Source of the DNA: a virus
Lineage: Duplodnaviria; Caudoviricetes
DNA: 51,001 nt
Virus record (IMG/VR): IMGVR_UViG_3300042874_000108
Coordinates: 1-51,001 of that record
Reading direction: 5' to 3' (one strand)
Shown: positions 13,235 through 50,805 of the stretch, piece by piece
Layout: every line of letters begins with the position of its first letter
How positions within the stretch are numbered: the first letter of the stretch is position 1
The notes under the pieces: model-generated
Databases searched by the model: none
Told to the model about the DNA's origin: nothing
Seen by the model: the letters and a program-made list of their open reading frames with translations, nothing else
Position numbers and translations under genes: made by a program

Positions 13235-14017
13235 ATGAGCGTTACGATCACAATTACCGACCCGTCCAGCACGCCTCCAGAGGAGCTTCAGGCGGTGATG
13301 GGGATGCTGGGGGGCTTCCTGCCTACCTCGCGGTCTGCTTTCGAGGGGCTCGGGGCGTCGGCGGTATTCGGCACGCCGCCTCCCCCGCCCGCGGAACACC
13401 CTGACCTGGTTCCGGTAGTTATGCCGGGAGGCGCGGCGCTCATTATTGGCGTCGAACTCGACAAAGACGGCATCCCGTGGGACGGCCGCATCCACACGCA
13501 AATCAAGTCCAAGACCGTCGAAGGCGTCTGGAAGAAGCGCCGCAACCTTGAGCAGGACTACCTTGCCGCCGTGACCTCCGAGCTGCGGGCGACGATGATG
13601 GCCCCCGCTCCGGTGGCCGAGGTGCCAGCGCCCGCCCCGGTAGCCGAGGTGCCCGCTCCGCCCGCCCCGGTAGCCGAGGTGCCCGCTCCGGTGGCCGAGG
13701 TGCCCGCTCCGGTGGCCGAGGTGCCAGCGCCCGCCCCGGTAGCCGAGGTGCCCGCTCCGCCCGCCCCGGTAGCCGAGGTGCCCGCTCCGCCCGCCCCGGT
13801 AGCCGAGGTGCCCGCTCCGCCAGCGCCCCCTGCAGCCCCCGGCATTTCCTTTGCCGAGTTCATGGGCCACGTTACCGCGGGCGTCACCAGCAGCCGATTC
13901 ACCCGTGAGGGGGTTATGGCGGCGTGCGTGGCGAACGGAGTCCCCAATCTGCCCGGCCTCATCAATCGCCCCGACCTCATCCCGGCGGTGGCACGTGAGT
14001 TGGGGTTGATAGCATGA
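13235..14017 (+). CDS. Phage replication-module protein with Pro/Ala-rich repeat linker
   Basis: GAGG RBS; ELDKDGIPWDGRIH...WKKRR domain, eight APVAEVP repeats, small C-terminal helical domain. Confidence 0.8.
   Translation: MSVTITITDPSSTPPEELQAVMGMLGGFLPTSRSAFEGLGASAVFGTPPPPPAEHPDLVPVVMPGGAALIIGVELDKDGIPWDGRIHTQIKSKTVEGVWKKRRNLEQDYLAAVTSELRATMMAPAPVAEVPAPAPVAEVPAPPAPVAEVPAPVAEVPAPVAEVPAPAPVAEVPAPPAPVAEVPAPPAPVAEVPAPPAPPAAPGISFAEFMGHVTAGVTSSRFTREGVMAACVANGVPNLPGLINRPDLIPAVARELGLIA
13604..13822 (+). repeat. Coding tandem repeat (21-30 bp units, eight APVAEVP copies)
   Basis: CCGGTRGCCGAGGTGCC core repeated eight times. Confidence 0.9.
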
Positions 14018-15144
14018 GCGAGCTCTTCCACTTCCCCCTGTCCGCCAGTGCCGCCGCGCGCTGGGTTGCCTGCGCCGGCAGCGTCAACCTGTGCGCCCTG
14101 TACCCGAGCGGCGACACGCCTAAGTCGATGGAGGGCACGGCGGCGCACTGGGTCGCCAGCGAGACTGTCCTCTGCGGTGCGCCTGCCCTCGGAGCCATCG
14201 CGCCCAACGGTATTGAAGTGACTGAGGAGATGCTGGACGGCGCCGATATGTACGCTGCCGACGTGCTCGCGGTTGCGGGCGTTGGCGGCAAGCTGCACGT
14301 CGAGAAGACGATGGGCAGCCCCCTCATTCACTCGGATTGCGGCGGTACACCCGACGCCTGGCACCACGACTCCGGCAACATCACAGTCTGGGACTACAAG
14401 TTTGGCCACGGGTTTGTTGACGTGTTCGAGAACTGGCAGTTGATTGTGTATGCGGCGGGCATCCTGGAGCAACTCGGCGTCACCAACGACTCCGGCGTGG
14501 ATGACTCGTTCTTCACGTTCACCTTCCGCATCGTGCAGCCCCGCAACTACCACCGCGACGGGCCGATCCGCGAATGGCGAGTGCGCGCCAGCGACCTGCG
14601 AGCCCACTTCAACATTTTGCGCATGGCGGCGGAGAAAGCCTGGCTGCGCACCGACGCAAAATGCACGCCGAACGACCAGTGCGACTACTGCGACGGTCGC
14701 GGCCATTGCGAAGCCCTGCAACAGACCGGCTTCAAGGGCATGGACTACGCCAGCGGCTCCACGCCGCTTGAGTTGACCAACGCTGCGCTCGGCACCGAAC
14801 TCACGCTCATCAACCACTACCTCGCGCGGCTCGAAGCGCGCAAGACCGGCCTCGAAGAAATGGCCGTCGCCCAGATCAAAGCGGGGGACAGAGTGCCGGG
14901 CTTTGCGCTCGACTCGACCGTTGGCCGCCTCGCGTGGTCAAAGCCGGTTGAGGAAGTGATCGCGCTGGGGCAAATGATGGGCGTTGAGGTCAGCAAGCCG
15001 GGCGTCATCACTCCGACACAGGCGATCAAGGCGGGCTTGCCGGACACGGTGGTTGCGGGGTACTCGGCGCGGCCCGCAGGCAGTTTGAAGCTGGTGGCGT
15101 CCAAGCACTCGGAGGCGCGTCGGGTGTTTGGTGGTGGCGCATAA
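14014..15144 (+). CDS. DUF2800-type Cas4-like PD-(D/E)xK nuclease
   Basis: SASAAARWVAC, EGTAAH, GTPDA...WDYKFG, QLIVYA, CDYC...C (Fe-S-type cysteines). Confidence 0.85.
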   Translation: MSELFHFPLSASAAARWVACAGSVNLCALYPSGDTPKSMEGTAAHWVASETVLCGAPALGAIAPNGIEVTEEMLDGADMYAADVLAVAGVGGKLHVEKTMGSPLIHSDCGGTPDAWHHDSGNITVWDYKFGHGFVDVFENWQLIVYAAGILEQLGVTNDSGVDDSFFTFTFRIVQPRNYHRDGPIREWRVRASDLRAHFNILRMAAEKAWLRTDAKCTPNDQCDYCDGRGHCEALQQTGFKGMDYASGSTPLELTNAALGTELTLINHYLARLEARKTGLEEMAVAQIKAGDRVPGFALDSTVGRLAWSKPVEEVIALGQMMGVEVSKPGVITPTQAIKAGLPDTVVAGYSARPAGSLKLVASKHSEARRVFGGGA

Positions 15145-16360: not shown

Positions 16361-17190
16361 AGAACTTCACGACACCCGTAGGCCGTTTTGTAACGGGCAG
16401 CCTCACCAAACCCCAGACCACCGATTTTGACGGCAACCCCCTGGTCTTCAAGACGGGCCCGGATGCGGGGAAGCCACGCAACAACTACTTCATCGGCATC
16501 GCTGTCCCCAAGGGCGCCGAGACGCACTGGAGCCAGACGCCCTGGGGCGCAGAAATCTGGAAGTTCGGTCACGAGGCTTTCCCGCAGGGACAGGCGGACT
16601 TGCCGGGGTTCTCGTGGAAGATCGAGGATGGAGACAACGCAGTCCCCAACCCGGACGCCGGCATGAAGCGCAACTGTGACCGCGAGGGGTACAAAGGCTG
16701 CTGGGTTCTCAAGTTCTCCTCCAGCTTCCAGTCGAGCACGTACAACTCCGACGGCAGCGCCAAGATTGAGCCGGAGTCGGTCAAGCCGGGCTACTTCATC
16801 CAGATAAACGGCGACATGCAGAGCAACGGCAAGCAAAGCAAGTCCGGCGTCTACCTCAATCACAAGATGATCGCCCTGGCCGCCTACGGCTCAGAGATTG
16901 TCTACGGCCCCGACGCTGCCGAGGCTGGCTTCGGCGCAAGCCCGCTGCCCGCTGGAGCATCCGCCGTCCCGGTGGCGAGCTTCGCGCCGCCTGCTGCGCC
17001 CCAAGCGCCCGCTGCACCTCAAGCGCCGGTGGCTCCGCCGCCCCCCGCACCTGCCTTCCTGCAAGTGCCGCCGCCGGCCGCCCTGGCTCACGTCATGTTG
17101 CCGCCGGCCAACGGCGCAACTTACGAGGCCATGCGCGCGGCGGGCTGGACTGACGCCACGTTGGTTCAGATGGGGATGATGGTGGGATGA
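16357..17190 (+). CDS. Single-stranded DNA-binding protein (DUF2815/gp2.5-like)
   Basis: AAGGAG RBS; TPVGRFV...KIEDGD...GCWVLKF...GVYLN; typical position between DUF2800 and polymerase. Confidence 0.75.
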   Translation: MKNFTTPVGRFVTGSLTKPQTTDFDGNPLVFKTGPDAGKPRNNYFIGIAVPKGAETHWSQTPWGAEIWKFGHEAFPQGQADLPGFSWKIEDGDNAVPNPDAGMKRNCDREGYKGCWVLKFSSSFQSSTYNSDGSAKIEPESVKPGYFIQINGDMQSNGKQSKSGVYLNHKMIALAAYGSEIVYGPDAAEAGFGASPLPAGASAVPVASFAPPAAPQAPAAPQAPVAPPPPAPAFLQVPPPAALAHVMLPPANGATYEAMRAAGWTDATLVQMGMMVG

Positions 17191-17378
17191 TGGACGAGGT
17201 ACTTGACGCCAAGCGCCGCCTTCAAACCGCGGTCATGCGCGCCTGCCGTGCGGAGTTGCGGGCGTTCGAGAAGGAAAGGGGGTTTCGCATGGATCGAGTG
17301 AGCACGGAGTTGGGCACCAGAGACCCCGAGTCCCTCAACCTGCGCATTGAAATTGTGGCAAGGAGGGGGAAACAGTGA
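17187..17378 (+). CDS. Hypothetical protein
   Basis: 63 aa, coupled to both neighbours. Confidence 0.55.
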   Translation: MMDEVLDAKRRLQTAVMRACRAELRAFEKERGFRMDRVSTELGTRDPESLNLRIEIVARRGKQ

Positions 17379-17614
17379 ACCCAATCGCCCGATTGAGGGA
17401 GGGAGCCGCCGGCACCTGCGGGTCGTGCAGGTATTGGAGCCCGTGTGCCGGGGACACCAGCGTTGGCGATTGTGACTCTGCTCTTCTCGTAAAGGGGTAC
17501 GGCGACCCCCCGGCTATCGTCCCTTCCAACATGGCCTTTGTTGAGGCTGACGAAGGCTGGGCGTTCCTTTCTGGCCCGGACTTTGGCTGCGTGAACTGGG
17601 AGCCAAACGAGTGA
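17375..17614 (+). CDS. Small Cys-rich protein
   Basis: GGAGG RBS; CGSCRYW...GDC...FGCVNW. Confidence 0.6.
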   Translation: MNPIARLREGAAGTCGSCRYWSPCAGDTSVGDCDSALLVKGYGDPPAIVPSNMAFVEADEGWAFLSGPDFGCVNWEPNE

Positions 17615-17628
17615 TGGTGGGCTGAGGC

Positions 17629-17905
17629 GCAGCGCAACGATACACGGCCAGCGTCTCCTAACGGGGGCGTTGTCCGGGTCTTGGTTGGCCCAAAGGCAGG
17701 GCAGCGCACTGCACGGCACGGCAAGGCAACGCACTGCATAGCAACGCAACGATACACGGCCAACGTCTCCTAACGGGGGCGTTGTCCGGGTCTTGGTTGA
17801 CCCAAGTGCACCGCAGGGCAAAGCAGTGCAACGCCCAGAAAAACACGGCACGGCAACGCAACGCAACGACACACGGAACCGGCGAGGAATATTCCGAGCC
17901 TTTTA
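17629..17905 (+). ncRNA. Putative structured guide-RNA array: GCA-NN pentamer tracts alternating with a conserved two-hairpin repeat
   Basis: 60-bp repeat at 17634-17693 and 17746-17805 (two mismatches, both keeping stems via G-U); 11 GCA-NN pentamers at 17696-17750; 12-unit tract at 17808-17867. Confidence 0.7.
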
Positions 17906-17919
17906 TAGAGGAAGCGAAA

Positions 17920-18519
17920 ATGGCAATTCAGCAAGCAGCAATCACAATTACCGGCATGGACTACCTGCTCCAAAACAACCCGCAGACCGTTGACCCGTTC
18001 AACCACTTCGCCAAGGCCATGAAGAAGATCACCGCCAAGCGCACGGGGAAGACCGAAGACGATCTGATCGAGCTGGGCAACATCGAAACGGAATCGAAGA
18101 TTTACTTCGACGACAACCTCGGTGTGTACGTCCCTTCGCGCTGGCTCACGGAAGCGATCTGCCGCGCGGCGTTCTCGGTAATCAAGATTGGCAAGGACAG
18201 GATGCGCGGCGGTATCTTCGCTACCGACGGCAAGGCCAAGTTGTCGTATGAGGGCATGGGCAAAGTCAAGACCATTACCGACGTGGTGAGGCTCCCGGAG
18301 TTCCGCCACCGCGCCTTGCTGCCGCAGGGAGCCGTGCGTATTGCAAAGGACTTCCCGATTTTCAAGAACTGGTCTTTCTCAACGGTGCTTGAGTTCGACG
18401 ACACGGTTATCGACCTCGCTGGGCTGCGCCAGGTTACTGAGCGGACAGCGAAGTACGTCGGCTTCGGTGACTTCCGCCCCACCTTCGGTCGTGCCACTGC
18501 GGAGGTGCAAGGTGTCTAA
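17920..18519 (+). CDS. Stand-alone Cas7/RAMP-like RNA-binding protein (Vipr-like)
   Basis: GAGG RBS, ATG 17920, 199 aa; ITITG..LL beta strand, YVPSRWLTEAI helix (cf. RAMP IPGSSLKG), C-terminal Gly-rich loop VGFGDFRPTFGR. Confidence 0.7.
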   Translation: MAIQQAAITITGMDYLLQNNPQTVDPFNHFAKAMKKITAKRTGKTEDDLIELGNIETESKIYFDDNLGVYVPSRWLTEAICRAAFSVIKIGKDRMRGGIFATDGKAKLSYEGMGKVKTITDVVRLPEFRHRALLPQGAVRIAKDFPIFKNWSFSTVLEFDDTVIDLAGLRQVTERTAKYVGFGDFRPTFGRATAEVQGV

Positions 18520-18928
18520 AGAACTACTGGTAGAACTTGAGAAGCGCGGCCTCCTTGACTTCGGGGAGGTCATTCCCGCCGCCATTGTCCGCGACCTGCT
18601 GGGGCTTGAGTACCCTACGACCGCAACGAAGAAAGAGTTTGACGCCTTGTCCCTGGCTGAACTGAAGGCGGTTGACTACGTTCGTAATGTCCTCCTCGGT
18701 CGCGGCATGTACCTGGCTGGACAAGGCGGCGACTACCGAATCCTGCTTCCCTCGGAGAACGCGAGGCAGATAGAGCTGTACATATCCTCCGCCGACGGTA
18801 AGTTGAGCCGGGCACTGAAGTTGAGTCGGAACACGCCGAAACTGGCGGACAAGAAGCACACGAACGACCAGACGAGTGCGCGCATAATCATGAAGCGCGA
18901 GGGAGTGCGGCGGGGAATCGGCAGATGA
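18512..18928 (+). CDS. Hypothetical accessory protein coupled to the RAMP-like gene
   Basis: GGAGG RBS at 18501, GTG start overlapping the upstream stop, ATGA overlap with the polymerase. Confidence 0.7.
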   Translation: MSKELLVELEKRGLLDFGEVIPAAIVRDLLGLEYPTTATKKEFDALSLAELKAVDYVRNVLLGRGMYLAGQGGDYRILLPSENARQIELYISSADGKLSRALKLSRNTPKLADKKHTNDQTSARIIMKREGVRRGIGR

Positions 18929-21123
18929 CCCCCATAGCCAACATCGACTTCGAGACCTACTCCGAGGCGGGCTTCATCTGGGACGCCGCGCGCAACAAGT
19001 GGGCCGCCCTCCCCGGCGCGTCTCAGGGCAAAAAGGGTCTTCCGGTCGTTGGCGCGTCGGTCTACGTCGGGCACCCCACTTTCGAAGTGCTGACGCTCTC
19101 CTACGACCTGCGGCAAGGCGCCGGCGTTCAAAGGTGGCAACCGGGCTTACCGCCACCCGTTGACCTGCTGGCGCACGTCGCCTCGGGCGGCCTGGTGTCA
19201 GGCTGGAACGCGGCGGGCTTCGAAATGAAAGTGTGGCGTCACTGTGTCGATCGCTACCGCTGGCCGCCGCTGCCGCTTTCACAGGTGCGGGACACGATGG
19301 CCGCCGCGCGTGCCTTCTGCCTGCCGGGGGCGCTGGGTAAGGCCGGAGAAGTGATGGCGCTCTCGCAACAGAAGAACGCCGACGGCAAGCGCCTGCTCGA
19401 CAAGTTCAGCATTCCGCGCAACCCAACCCAGCCCAACCCGGCGTTACGCATCAGGCCCGCCGACGACCCTGCCGACGCCGAGAAGCTGTACGCCTACTGC
19501 GACGAAGACGTGCTCACCGAGCAAGAGGCGGGCAGCCTCATCCCACCGCTGTCGCCCAAAGAGTTGGCCGCATGGCAAACCGATCGCGGCATCAACGACC
19601 GGGGCGTGCAGATTGACCTCGAAGGCGCCCACAACTGCATCGCCATCCTTAACCAGGCGCATAGGCAATACAACGCCGAATTGCGCGCGCTCACGGGCGG
19701 CACGGTTGAACGCGCGTCGGAACTGGCCAAGCTGCAAGGCTGGCTGGGGGCGCAGGGGGTCGTCATGGGGTCAATGGACGAGGAGGCGATTGGCTCGACC
19801 CTCGCACAAGAGCTACCCGCCCCCGCCCGCCGCGCCCTTGAAATCAGGCAAGCGGTCGGCAGCGCGTCGGTCAAGAAGGTCTTTGCAATGGCCAACACGG
19901 TGTCTCGGGACGGGCGGCTGCGAGACCTCTTCATTTACCACGGTGCGAGAACAGGGAGACCGACTGGTTCTGGCCCTCAGCCAACCAATCTCCCCAACAG
20001 CGCTGGGGTCTTTGCCCTCGAATGTGAGGGCTGCGACAAGCACTACGGCGTCAGCCTGCCCTCGTGCCCGTGGTGCGGTGCGTCGGCCACCCTGGCGCAC
20101 ACGGTCGAGTGGGGGGCGGAATGCGCTGAAGACGCGCTTGAGTCCTTCAAGCCGCGCTCGCTCGACTGGGCGGAGTATGTGTGGGGTGACTCGATGGCCG
20201 CGCTGTCCGGCAGCCTGCGGGGGCTGTTCATCGCTGCGCCGGGTCATGACTTGATCTGCTCGGATTACTCCAGCATCGAGGCCGTCGGGCTGGCAATGCT
20301 GGCTGGGGAGCAGTGGCGGATCGACCTGTTCCGTTCACACGGGAAGATTTACGAGATGTCGGCCAGCAAGACCACCGGTATCCCGTTCGAGGAGATTCTC
20401 GAACACAAGAGAAAGACCGGCCAGCACCATCAAGTCCGCAAGCTGGGCAAGGTGCAAGAGTTGGCCCTCGGCTATCAAGGCTGGGTCGGCTCCATGCTCG
20501 CCTTTGGCGCCGACGAGTTCATGTCGGAAGCCGAGATGAAGGAAGCCATACTCGCGTGGCGCGCGGCTTCCCCCGCCATCGTTGAGTTGTGGGGCGGCCA
20601 GGAGCGCAACTGGCAGCCCGAGTACTACGGCGTGGAGGGCGCGTTCGTGCAGGCCGTCCTGACTCCCGGCGCGGCGTACCGCACACACGGCATGGACTTC
20701 CAGATGCGCGGCGATGCGCTGTTCCTGCGGTTGCTGTCCGGGCGGGAGTTGACCTACCACCGCCCCCGGCTCGCCCCCAGCACCCGCCGCCCCGGCACGT
20801 GCTCGATCAGTTACGAGGGGTGGAACAGCAACCCCAAGAACGGGCCGCAAGGCTGGCAACGGATGGAGACGTGGGCTGGGAGGCTCGTTGAGAACATCAA
20901 CCAGGCGCAGTGCCGCGACATCCAGTGGCACGGAGTTCAGGCGTTAGAGCGCGCGGGTTACCCGATCGTGCTCCACGTCTACGATGAAGATGTGGCGGAA
21001 GTGCCAGAGGGCTTCGGAAGTATCGAAGAGTTCGAGCGTGTGATGGGCGACTTGCCCGAGTGGTGCGCCGACTGGCCGATCAAAGCGGCAGGCGGCTGGA
21101 GAGGAAAGAGGTATCGCAAATGA
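18925..21123 (+). CDS. polA: Family A DNA polymerase (APSE-like) with 3'-5' exonuclease
   Basis: DFETYSE ExoI, DYSSIE motif A, RKLGKVQELALGY motif B, LHVYDE motif C. Confidence 0.93.
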   Translation: MTPIANIDFETYSEAGFIWDAARNKWAALPGASQGKKGLPVVGASVYVGHPTFEVLTLSYDLRQGAGVQRWQPGLPPPVDLLAHVASGGLVSGWNAAGFEMKVWRHCVDRYRWPPLPLSQVRDTMAAARAFCLPGALGKAGEVMALSQQKNADGKRLLDKFSIPRNPTQPNPALRIRPADDPADAEKLYAYCDEDVLTEQEAGSLIPPLSPKELAAWQTDRGINDRGVQIDLEGAHNCIAILNQAHRQYNAELRALTGGTVERASELAKLQGWLGAQGVVMGSMDEEAIGSTLAQELPAPARRALEIRQAVGSASVKKVFAMANTVSRDGRLRDLFIYHGARTGRPTGSGPQPTNLPNSAGVFALECEGCDKHYGVSLPSCPWCGASATLAHTVEWGAECAEDALESFKPRSLDWAEYVWGDSMAALSGSLRGLFIAAPGHDLICSDYSSIEAVGLAMLAGEQWRIDLFRSHGKIYEMSASKTTGIPFEEILEHKRKTGQHHQVRKLGKVQELALGYQGWVGSMLAFGADEFMSEAEMKEAILAWRAASPAIVELWGGQERNWQPEYYGVEGAFVQAVLTPGAAYRTHGMDFQMRGDALFLRLLSGRELTYHRPRLAPSTRRPGTCSISYEGWNSNPKNGPQGWQRMETWAGRLVENINQAQCRDIQWHGVQALERAGYPIVLHVYDEDVAEVPEGFGSIEEFERVMGDLPEWCADWPIKAAGGWRGKRYRK

Positions 21124-50632: not shown

Positions 50633-50704
50633 ATTCCATCAATCCTCCGCTGGGTCAGCAGGCCGCAACGGGCGCAACGTGTTCCTTTGAACTTCATGGG
50701 CGCG

Positions 50705-50805
50705 AGTATAGGGCCTCTCCGGGTTTCGTCAAGTTCCTCGTCAGCACGGGCTTCGTCAAGTTACTCGTCAGCATAGGGGCTCTCCGGGTTTCGTCAAGTT
50801 ACTCG
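50705..50805 (-). promoter_or_regulatory. Tandem sigma70-like late promoters within three direct repeats
   Basis: Minus strand TTGACG-N16-TATACT (50732-50705) and TTGACG-N16-TATGCT (50797-50770); repeats at 50720-50746, 50747-50773, 50785-50805. Confidence 0.65.

Follow-up and report, generated by a model that had tools for sequence, protein, structure and literature searches.

A probable phage VIPR locus with GCA/NN guide units, closest in layout to the type II system of SUSP1

Described VIPR systems and the locus under study

VIPR (Viral Interference Programmable Repeat) was first described in 2026 as a system composed of a phage-encoded protein, Vipr, and the products of one or more vap genes (10.64898/2026.04.26.720920). 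Here a locus at positions 17629-18928 of the IMG/VR virus record IMGVR_UViG_3300042874_000108 is described; the whole stretch analysed, which is 51,001 nucleotides (nt) long, is referred to as the window. Based on protein homology, predicted fold and the structure of an adjoining non-coding array, the locus is very probably a phage VIPR locus, closest to the type II (vipr plus vap1) layout of SUSP1, with guides built of GCA/NN units.

According to the text of the discovery preprint, the guide RNA (vrRNA) consists of 9-16 YNNGG units, in which GGY is fixed and NN is variable, followed by an invariant 3' tail. In the reading of double-stranded DNA every NN forms pairs, with one target base passed over each time, and rival phages, prophages and satellites are silenced. 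Seven types with GGY/NN "or a related consensus" are distinguished, NNNGG, YNNNG and NNNNG being named, and internal degeneracy of vrRNAs is frequent (10.64898/2026.04.26.720920). A sequence-only reading of the window had described such a system, and the preprint agrees with that description.

The cryo-electron microscopy (cryo-EM) structure of the SUSP1 system assigns the reading of the fixed triplet to individual residues: H17 hydrogen-bonds G1, which is also read by D177; R138 forms a salt bridge with G2, which is also read by W178; and the Y3 pocket, formed by E71, M72, R179 and C173, excludes purines. K33 adjoins the skipped target base and contacts the backbone. One protomer is bound per repeat, and either D177A or R138A abolishes silencing (10.64898/2026.04.26.720927). 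Both Vipr and Vap1 are needed by SUSP1 against its satellite, and rival elements use "solo" vrRNAs as decoys (10.64898/2026.10.15.759431). A preprint of October 2026 reported 6,318 sequences in 21 clusters in which arrays of period 5 adjoin Vipr-like folds and the fixed triplet is not GGY; the named examples are GAC/NN, CAC/NN, WGT/NN and TGH/NN (10.64898/2026.10.21.760802).

The present locus belongs to this general class of non-canonical triplets, and the TGH/NN class, which reads DCA/NN on the other strand, would fit its clade. The triplet GCA is absent from the main text of the four VIPR-related preprints. The system and its non-canonical triplets are thus already published, and the locus is a further example of VIPR. 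The text of the October preprint gives no strand evidence, residue-level explanation or targets, unlike the present analysis, which adds strand and tail evidence, a clade-wide link between the triplet and the residues at the H17 and R138 sites, and a first candidate natural target for the clade.

The following features were located, all on the plus strand:

17629..17695, plus strand: truncated first unit, with two pentamers GCAGC GCAAC (17629-17638) and then a full copy of the two-hairpin tail (17639-17695)
17696..17807, plus strand: vrRNA 1, with 11 GCA/NN pentamers (17696-17750) and then a 57-nt two-hairpin 3' tail (17751-17807)
17808..17906, plus strand: vrRNA 2, with 12 pentamers (17808-17867) and then a distinct terminal tail, including a hairpin (17881-17900) and TTTTAT (17901-17906)
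17920..18519, plus strand: vipr, encoding a 199-aa Cas7-like RAMP protein of the VIPR family, GCA clade
18512..18928, plus strand: vap1-like gene (138 aa), with translational coupling both to vipr and to the DNA polymerase gene

With the SUSP1 type II system the locus shares full-length Vipr homology, a vap1-like gene directly after vipr, five-base units (three fixed and two variable bases; 11-12 units in the window) followed by an invariant structured 3' tail, phage origin without cas genes or a CRISPR array, and the retained G1 with its Asp contact (D177/D184), the lysine at the skipped-base site and Arg179/R186. It differs in the fixed triplet, which is G-C-A instead of G-G-Y, and in the residues that read it, as detailed below. 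The tail consists of two simple hairpins where SUSP1 has a pseudoknot (none was seen in the window, and none was searched for), and the array lies entirely upstream of vipr, in contrast to SUSP1 with its single upstream and three downstream guides. The sequence-only reading had proposed a "related" programmable system. The kinship is supported by homology, and "related" alone proved too cautious, as the locus is itself a VIPR member nearest to the SUSP1 type II layout.

The Vipr protein

The 199-aa protein was identified as a Vipr by sequence homology, and not merely as RAMP-like in appearance, because a full-length sequence match to SUSP1 Vipr goes together with a Cas7-type fold. In a phmmer search of the Protein Data Bank (PDB) sequences the sole match was 36pp_D, "SUSP1 Vipr protein" (E 3.3e-15, residues 8-197 against 6-190 of 202), with an identity of approximately 30%; a profile of 22 clade members matched the same chain with an E of 8.7e-32. 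The hallmarks from which a RAMP-like protein had been suspected, YVPSRWL and GFGDFRPTFGR, are present in the open reading frame (ORF), and the suspicion was borne out by the structure prediction. An AlphaFold2 (AF2) model built on a 68-sequence alignment (pLDDT 96.2, pTM 0.88) has an RRM core, a beta-hairpin thumb (129-148) and a Gly-rich loop (181-191). Foldseek returned 27 PDB matches at E <= 0.001 from a fold library without the SUSP1 structure (best E 1.4e-4, TM ~0.3-0.54); those listed were mostly of the Cas7 family (Csm3, type VII Cas7, Cmr4), together with other CRISPR RAMPs (Csf2, Cmr1). Protein length and the order of secondary-structure elements agree with those of a Vipr.

Among the PHROGs the protein matched the unnamed family phrog_4652 (E 2.4e-48), and neither it nor the 138-aa protein had a match in Pfam or NCBIfam. 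The wider family is large: 747 proteins in 90%-identity clusters were found at E <= 0.001, all unnamed, and 1,516 representatives at 50% identity.

The Cas7 backbone proteins of class 1 systems (Csm3, Cmr4, type VII Cas7, Csf2) share with the model the RRM core, the Gly-rich loop and the beta-hairpin thumb (best Foldseek matches 6ifn_F, 8z4l_F, 8s37_E and 6s6b_I; E 1e-4 to 2e-3, TM 0.38-0.54, identity 7-13%), and by analogy would be alike in placing one protomer on each fixed RNA period. That period is 5 nt in VIPR and 6 nt in class 1 Cas7, and the VIPR guide is non-contiguous. A class 1 CRISPR-Cas effector was considered as the identity of the locus and rejected: the 51-kb genome held no direct-repeat array of 24-48-nt repeats with spacers, and no further cas families were found among the 46 ORFs. 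The absence of CRISPR repeats and of other effector cas genes, noted earlier from the sequence, was upheld by every scan. A PHROGs scan of 46 window ORFs returned no family with a Cas description, PADLOC gave no match for either of the two locus genes, Rfam matched no family in the array or the whole window, and no CRISPR-like array appeared in the Tandem Repeats Finder (TRF) listing or Rfam for the whole genome. Relative to class 1 systems, then, these scans gave no second RAMP, no large or small subunit, no Cas6, no adaptation genes and no CRISPR array.

The guide array in the window

The region upstream of vipr was resolved by a repeat search into two 112-nt units (17629-17740 and 17741-17852) which are 79% identical; TRF reported a period of 112 with 2.1 copies and a score of 314, along with rows of period 5. 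The GCA-NN pentamer array proposed from the letters alone proved to be real. At 17696-17750 GCA recurs at exact 5-nt spacing in 11 of 11 pentamers, and at 17808-17867 it is exact in nine of 12, the three degenerate pentamers of vrRNA 2 being GCCCA, GAAAA and ACACG, so that 20 of the 23 pentamers in the two tracts carry an exact GCA. The two bases which follow are variable, with 11 different dinucleotides; in vrRNA 1 the series reads GG GC CT CG CG AG AC CT TA AC AC. When both strands of the 51 kb were scanned for segments in which six or more of 11 period-5 positions read GCA, only the array and a pentamer run at the contig end were found, nearly all other segments scoring 0-2.

The tail of vrRNA 1 has a predicted folding energy of -28.0 kcal/mol on the plus strand (z -3.70, with none of 200 shuffles as stable) and of -20.5 kcal/mol on the minus strand (z -2.04). 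The tail copy at 17639-17695 gave -27.4 kcal/mol on the plus strand versus -14.1 on the minus strand. The TTTTAT end of vrRNA 2 directly precedes the ribosome-binding site of vipr; the hairpin before it was not flagged as a terminator by a consensus scan.

Compared with the published description, the locus has a Vipr homologue with a RAMP fold, NN tracts within the range of 9-16 units, a structured 3' tail, and a vap gene in a viral context without cas genes. It lacks the canonical GGY triplet, in place of which GCA stands on the vipr strand. GGY is regarded here as the canonical form and not as an absolute criterion, because the preprints allow a related consensus and report other triplets.

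The run at the contig end (50887-51001, minus strand) is a perfect pentamer tandem, (GCAGG)n, of 23.0 copies with 100% identity, which runs off the end of the contig. It has the fixed triplet of the guides with NN always GG, and is followed by in-register degenerate pentamers, including GCAAC and GCACC, and then by a T-run, with no vrRNA-like tail after it. It could be a terminal repeat or an artefact of assembly, an RNA bound by Vipr or, should the genome be circular, a coding repeat liable to slippage (15 nt = 5 codons).

Relatives, their arrays and the strand of the guides

Thirteen loci of the near clade were read at the DNA level: that of the window, Vibrio phage 1.266.O, Listonella phage phiHSIC, five IMG/VR contigs and five genome contigs, the last including an Azonexus sp. 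chromosome and contigs of Rhodoferax and Fluviibacter metagenome-assembled genomes (MAGs). Identity to the window Vipr was ~50% for the two named phages, 77-80% for the IMG/VR contigs and 48-69% for the genome contigs. A scan of genome contigs with the single window protein returned no relatives; a scan with the clade alignment did find them. The presence of 5-nt-periodic arrays beside homologues had been set beforehand as a refutation test, and all 13 loci have GCA/NN tracts of 7-16 units beside vipr and on the vipr strand. In the closest relatives four to seven consecutive guides lie upstream of vipr. Over 236 clade pentamers, positions 1-3 are G in 97%, C in 90% and A in 95%, values which are inflated because the tracts were seeded on GCA; position 1 is otherwise T (3%), and all four bases occur at positions 4 and 5.

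More distant Vipr loci adjoin arrays of the described kind, with GGC/NN in Gordonia phage Trine and Mycobacterium phage LittleE and GGT in the SUSP1-like phage HY02. Among 24 distant genome loci, GGY-type arrays were seen in 20 and none in the other four (L020, L025, L028 and L033), where flanks were short or matches partial.

The orientation of the guides was determined from the tails. All 20 tails examined, from eight sources, are more stable on the vipr strand (mean -20.5 versus -13.3 kcal/mol; Wilcoxon p 1.9e-6), and the two-hairpin shape is retained in them despite divergent sequences. In five relatives, judged by eye, the final tail of the array is distinct, and a hairpin with T-run stands between it and the ribosome-binding site of vipr. 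Since the tails fold better on the vipr strand and a hairpin with T-run precedes vipr, the order is tract and then 3' tail, as published, and the triplet in the RNA is 5'-GCA-3'. The suggestion that the constant triplet differs from that of the described systems therefore holds, with GCA read on the vipr strand.

Several observations were made on the relatives. In phiHSIC (L002 4599-4880) three guides form a vrRNA array that separates vipr (ORF22) from the vap-like ORF20; ORF21, annotated on the other strand with its whole length on this array, is most likely a spurious gene call. In Trine (L008 2570-2860) and LittleE (L009 3130-3480) the GGC/NN tracts are separated by elements resembling a tRNA T-arm, GGTTCGAnTCC; ARAGORN called one Trine element a degenerate tRNA (L008 2777-2845) and none in LittleE (L009). 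These spacers suggest processing by tRNA-maturation enzymes. Hammerhead ribozymes are named in the discovery preprint, and a T-arm-like spacer does not occur in the part of its text that was covered (10.64898/2026.04.26.720920). The annotation of Trine makes its array the opening part of protein gene 40.

The fixed triplet and the residues that would read it

Twenty-seven Viprs from loci with readable arrays (13 GCA, 14 GGY) were aligned; L020, L024, L025, L027, L028, L030-L035, L037 and L038 were excluded because they were duplicate, had no array or matched in the G-loop alone. The residues at three sites differ between the groups as follows:

Site of SUSP1 H17: N in 12/13 and S in 1/13 GCA loci; H in 14/14 GGY loci
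Site of SUSP1 R138: F in 6, A in 5, S in 1 and T in 1 of 13 GCA loci; R in 14/14 GGY loci
Helix-1 site (SUSP1 E71): W in GCA loci; E or N in GGY loci

D177 and R179 are retained in both groups. A wider alignment of 68 proteins (60 representatives of 50%-identity clusters, seven close relatives and the window protein) gave the same picture: in the set with at least 37% identity, N or S occupies the H17 site in 23 of 23 and arginine is missing from the R138 site in 22 of 23, while among the other 45 proteins H is found in 35 and R in 44. In the window protein itself H17 is replaced by N, R138 by F, E71/M72 by W/L and W178 by F, the change at R138 standing although R138A kills silencing in SUSP1; D177 (as D184), R179 (as R186) and K33 (as K35) are kept. 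Judged from these alignments, the retention of G1 and its Asp contact along with the loss of the G2 contacts would fit a pocket re-keyed from G-G-Y to G-C-A.

The G-loop residues F185 and T188 were considered as the cause of the switch to GCA and rejected, as a distant GGY clade has the same GDFRPT loop. That clade (24-29% identity; L016-L039, genome contigs from many phyla) carries GDFRPT[FY]GR as does the window protein, keeps His and Arg at the guanine-reading sites, adjoins GGY/NN arrays, and includes identical copies in Thermomonas and Tepidimonas genomes (L023, L024, L027).

The accessory gene

The 138-aa gene starts with GTG after GGAGG, overlaps the vipr stop by 8 nt, and has its own stop overlapping the ATG of the polymerase gene. 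BLASTP aligned its product with the proteins encoded next after vipr in HY02, a SUSP1-like phage (E 2e-5; 119 aa aligned at 24% identity), and in Vibrio phage 1.266.O (E 1e-8). A vap1-like gene follows vipr in all 11 GCA-clade loci from which a downstream ORF was extracted, and is also present in Vibrio phage 1.266.O and Listonella phage phiHSIC; the clade proteins have a conserved core, YRILLPSEN...KLSRALKLSRNTP. The AF2 model of the 138-aa protein had a pLDDT of 78.5. A fold search with it gave no significant match (best E 0.1), the weak ones being nearly all winged-helix DNA binders, and a vap profile searched against the PDB sequences found nothing below E 0.7. A winged-helix identity is a weak lead only. 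The modelled resemblance agrees with, and does not prove, the "predicted DNA-binding" vap1 of the preprint.

A candidate natural target in a relative

Guide 1 of the Azonexus prophage, with its first 12 NN written as NNx and up to three mismatches allowed, matched in one of 61 genomes of the family, at 22 of 24 positions, the reversed control giving none. The site is on the prophage's own chromosome, 2.6 Mb from the VIPR locus. Rewritten with skip 0 or skip 2 the guide found nothing, and with skip 3 only the array itself. By our own estimate, which assumes uniform base composition, the chance of a match with two or fewer mismatches is ~7e-5 per genome. The site, which is promoter-proximal, precedes by 31-65 nt the likely start of a gene for an O-like replication-initiation protein (phrog_391, E 1.4e-10, aligned from residue 23). 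This gene belongs to another integrated element, which adjoins ahpCF-like genes and encodes an integrase as well as a DnaB-like helicase. The match suggests, at the level of sequence, that the GCA clade keeps the read-two-skip-one code. The sequence-only reading had proposed competing phages or host genes as the aim of the system; the one credible target, that of a relative's guide, is in an integrated mobile element. The case is a candidate natural instance of one integrated element silencing the replication of another.

Genome setting

The whole record (51,001 bp, 61.7% G+C) is a siphovirus-like phage genome with genes for terminase, portal, major head/capsid, connector, tail, tape-measure, endolysin and spanin proteins and a replication module. 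The order within the module is exonuclease, Gp2.5-like SSB, two small ORFs, a 290-bp gap, the 199-aa ORF, the 138-aa ORF and a family-A DNA polymerase. The coupling of vipr to the 138-aa gene and its position between SSB and DNA polymerase, as first read from the sequence, were thereby corroborated. The neighbouring genes are:

14014-15144: exonuclease
16366-17190: Gp2.5-like SSB (phrog_7011, E 1e-67)
18925-21123: family-A DNA polymerase

Three further repeat-bearing regions of the window were noted. At 13604-13821 approximately seven imperfect 30-nt tandem repeats lie inside ORF 13235-14017, which matches phrog_11133 (function unknown), and code for a Pro/Ala/Val/Glu-rich PAPVAEVPAP. At 1-251 there are tandem repeats of 30 nt (6.3 copies) and 39 nt (2.6 copies) within an ORF of the minus strand which begins near 486 and is open at the left end of the contig, coding for ATQGVPEATN-like decapeptides; if the record is circular, this ORF would continue into the pentamer run at the right end. 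At 50700-50800 (minus strand), two copies of TTGACG with a 17-18 nt spacer and TATGCT or TATACT were found by eye within a 27-nt repeat, facing leftward genes. They are possible early promoters adjoining the genome end.

Alternative readings

A number of results weigh against a working VIPR locus of the kind proposed, or against the link between triplet and residues. A consensus scan of 17100-19100 called no sigma-70-like promoter and no plus-strand terminator, and among the sequencing runs which hold all or part of 17300-19300 there are four DNA runs labelled cave metagenome and no RNA run. The array shows signs of wear, with two full guides against four to seven in the closest relatives, one truncated unit, and three degenerate pentamers in guide 2. 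Against the phage's own genome the best matches of the window guides covered 15-16 of 22-24 positions, the same as shuffled guides achieved; such an absence of own-genome matches is also reported for other systems in the discovery preprint (10.64898/2026.04.26.720920). The exact 9-NN NNx patterns of both window guides had no match in viral contigs. Window guide A, with up to three mismatches, had none in the Azonexus genome and one in 401 genomes of the Azonexus order, against seven for the control. Its 10-NN pattern had no match in metagenome contigs; its 9-NN pattern had three there, in unrelated contexts with flanks that do not extend the match, and these were read as chance. Guides of three further relatives gave no exact match in viral contigs, 39 clade guides tested against 237 kb of DNA showed no preferred skip length among skip 0, 1 and 2, and the Azonexus target is a single match, guide 2 of that prophage giving none. 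Because the GCA loci form a single clade, the correlation between residues and triplet is in effect one evolutionary event, and the G-loop is not diagnostic of the triplet.

The alternative which survives best is a working VIPR whose GCA clade uses a rule other than read two and skip one, or binds RNA and not DNA, the geometry of the pocket having changed. It draws on the altered residues at the base-2 and base-3 pockets (R138 to F; E71/M72 to W/L), on a purine at base 3, which the SUSP1 pocket excludes (10.64898/2026.04.26.720927), and on the lack of an NNx match for most guides tested. It appears unlikely in view of K35, the counterpart of the K33 which contacts the backbone near the skipped base, of a length and secondary-structure order which are those of a Vipr, and of a sole significant natural match at skip 1 and not at skip 0 or 2.

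The failure to find targets, together with the wear described above (a truncated unit of two pentamers, three of 12 pentamers degenerate in guide 2, and only two guides where the closest relatives have four to seven), could also mean a decaying or idle VIPR, with genes intact, the array shrunk to two worn guides, no living target and no activity in this phage. Failure in every collection searched would be expected if the host and its mobile elements are unsampled, and the host probably is, because only cave-metagenome DNA runs hold the stretch. Furthermore, both genes of the locus are of full length and translationally coupled, and at 77-80% identity to relatives they keep every nearly invariant residue; guide 1 has a perfect 11/11 tract and an intact tail; and degeneracy of vrRNAs is frequent in published systems (10.64898/2026.04.26.720920). 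An idle system is accordingly judged to be quite unlikely.

Guides read from the opposite strand as TGC/NN units with a tail would come closer to G-G-Y, since U-G-C shares with it the G in second and the pyrimidine in third place. A constant element follows each tract on the minus strand too, and a TGH/NN class has been listed (10.64898/2026.10.21.760802). This orientation is very improbable: each of the 20 tails loses stability on the minus strand, where G-U pairs of the stems turn into C-A mismatches, the arrays of five relatives end in a hairpin and T-run on the vipr strand before vipr, and the residues which read G2 in SUSP1 are the very ones lost. Finally, that the repeats are DNA-level replication elements (origin iterons) or a regulatory leader of a vipr-vap-polymerase operon, as their place between the SSB and DNA polymerase genes and the lack of a predicted promoter might suggest, is hardly credible, as the array type moves with vipr (beside tail/capsid genes in phiHSIC, after a helicase-like gene in Vibrio phage 1.266.O) and fixed triplets beside hypervariable NN, with tail stems that change in a compensatory way, mark vrRNAs and not iterons.

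Proposed mechanism and implications

For the VIPR locus with GCA/NN guides, a mode of action may be proposed by analogy with SUSP1. The array would be transcribed and cut into RNAs of ~100-110 nt, and one Vipr protomer would bind each pentamer, burying G-C-A in a re-shaped pocket. Each NN would be left free to pair with double-stranded DNA in a read-two-skip-one pattern over a footprint of ~33-36 bp. Binding would silence transcription of a rival mobile element, the winged-helix-like Vap probably being needed alongside. The VIPR reading accounts for the 290-bp "non-coding" gap and for two hypothetical genes in the replication module.

A tentative extension, which we consider possible and on balance doubtful, is that GCA represents a re-keyed lock. 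The change of His to Asn, the replacement of the thumb Arg by a non-basic residue and the re-shaped pocket for the third base would make the lineage orthogonal to GGY systems, such that solo or decoy GGY guides of rivals could not be loaded and its own guides could not be stolen. A weaker addition is that the (GCAGG)x23 run at the contig end might serve as a Vipr-loading or sponge RNA.

The VIPR biochemistry published so far rests on GGY-reading proteins, in a field which is only months old. A change of triplet paired with the residues that read G1 and G2 turns recognition of the guide scaffold, and its changeability, into a direct swap question, and the GCA clade offers a candidate orthogonal guide scaffold. 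The Azonexus match is the first candidate natural target for this clade and fits VIPR as a weapon between mobile elements. If the re-keyed lock is true, engineers would have a second, non-cross-talking programmable DNA binder with a read-two-skip-one code, and triplet switching would be an arms-race move in guide-hijacking conflicts such as that between SUSP1 and its satellites.

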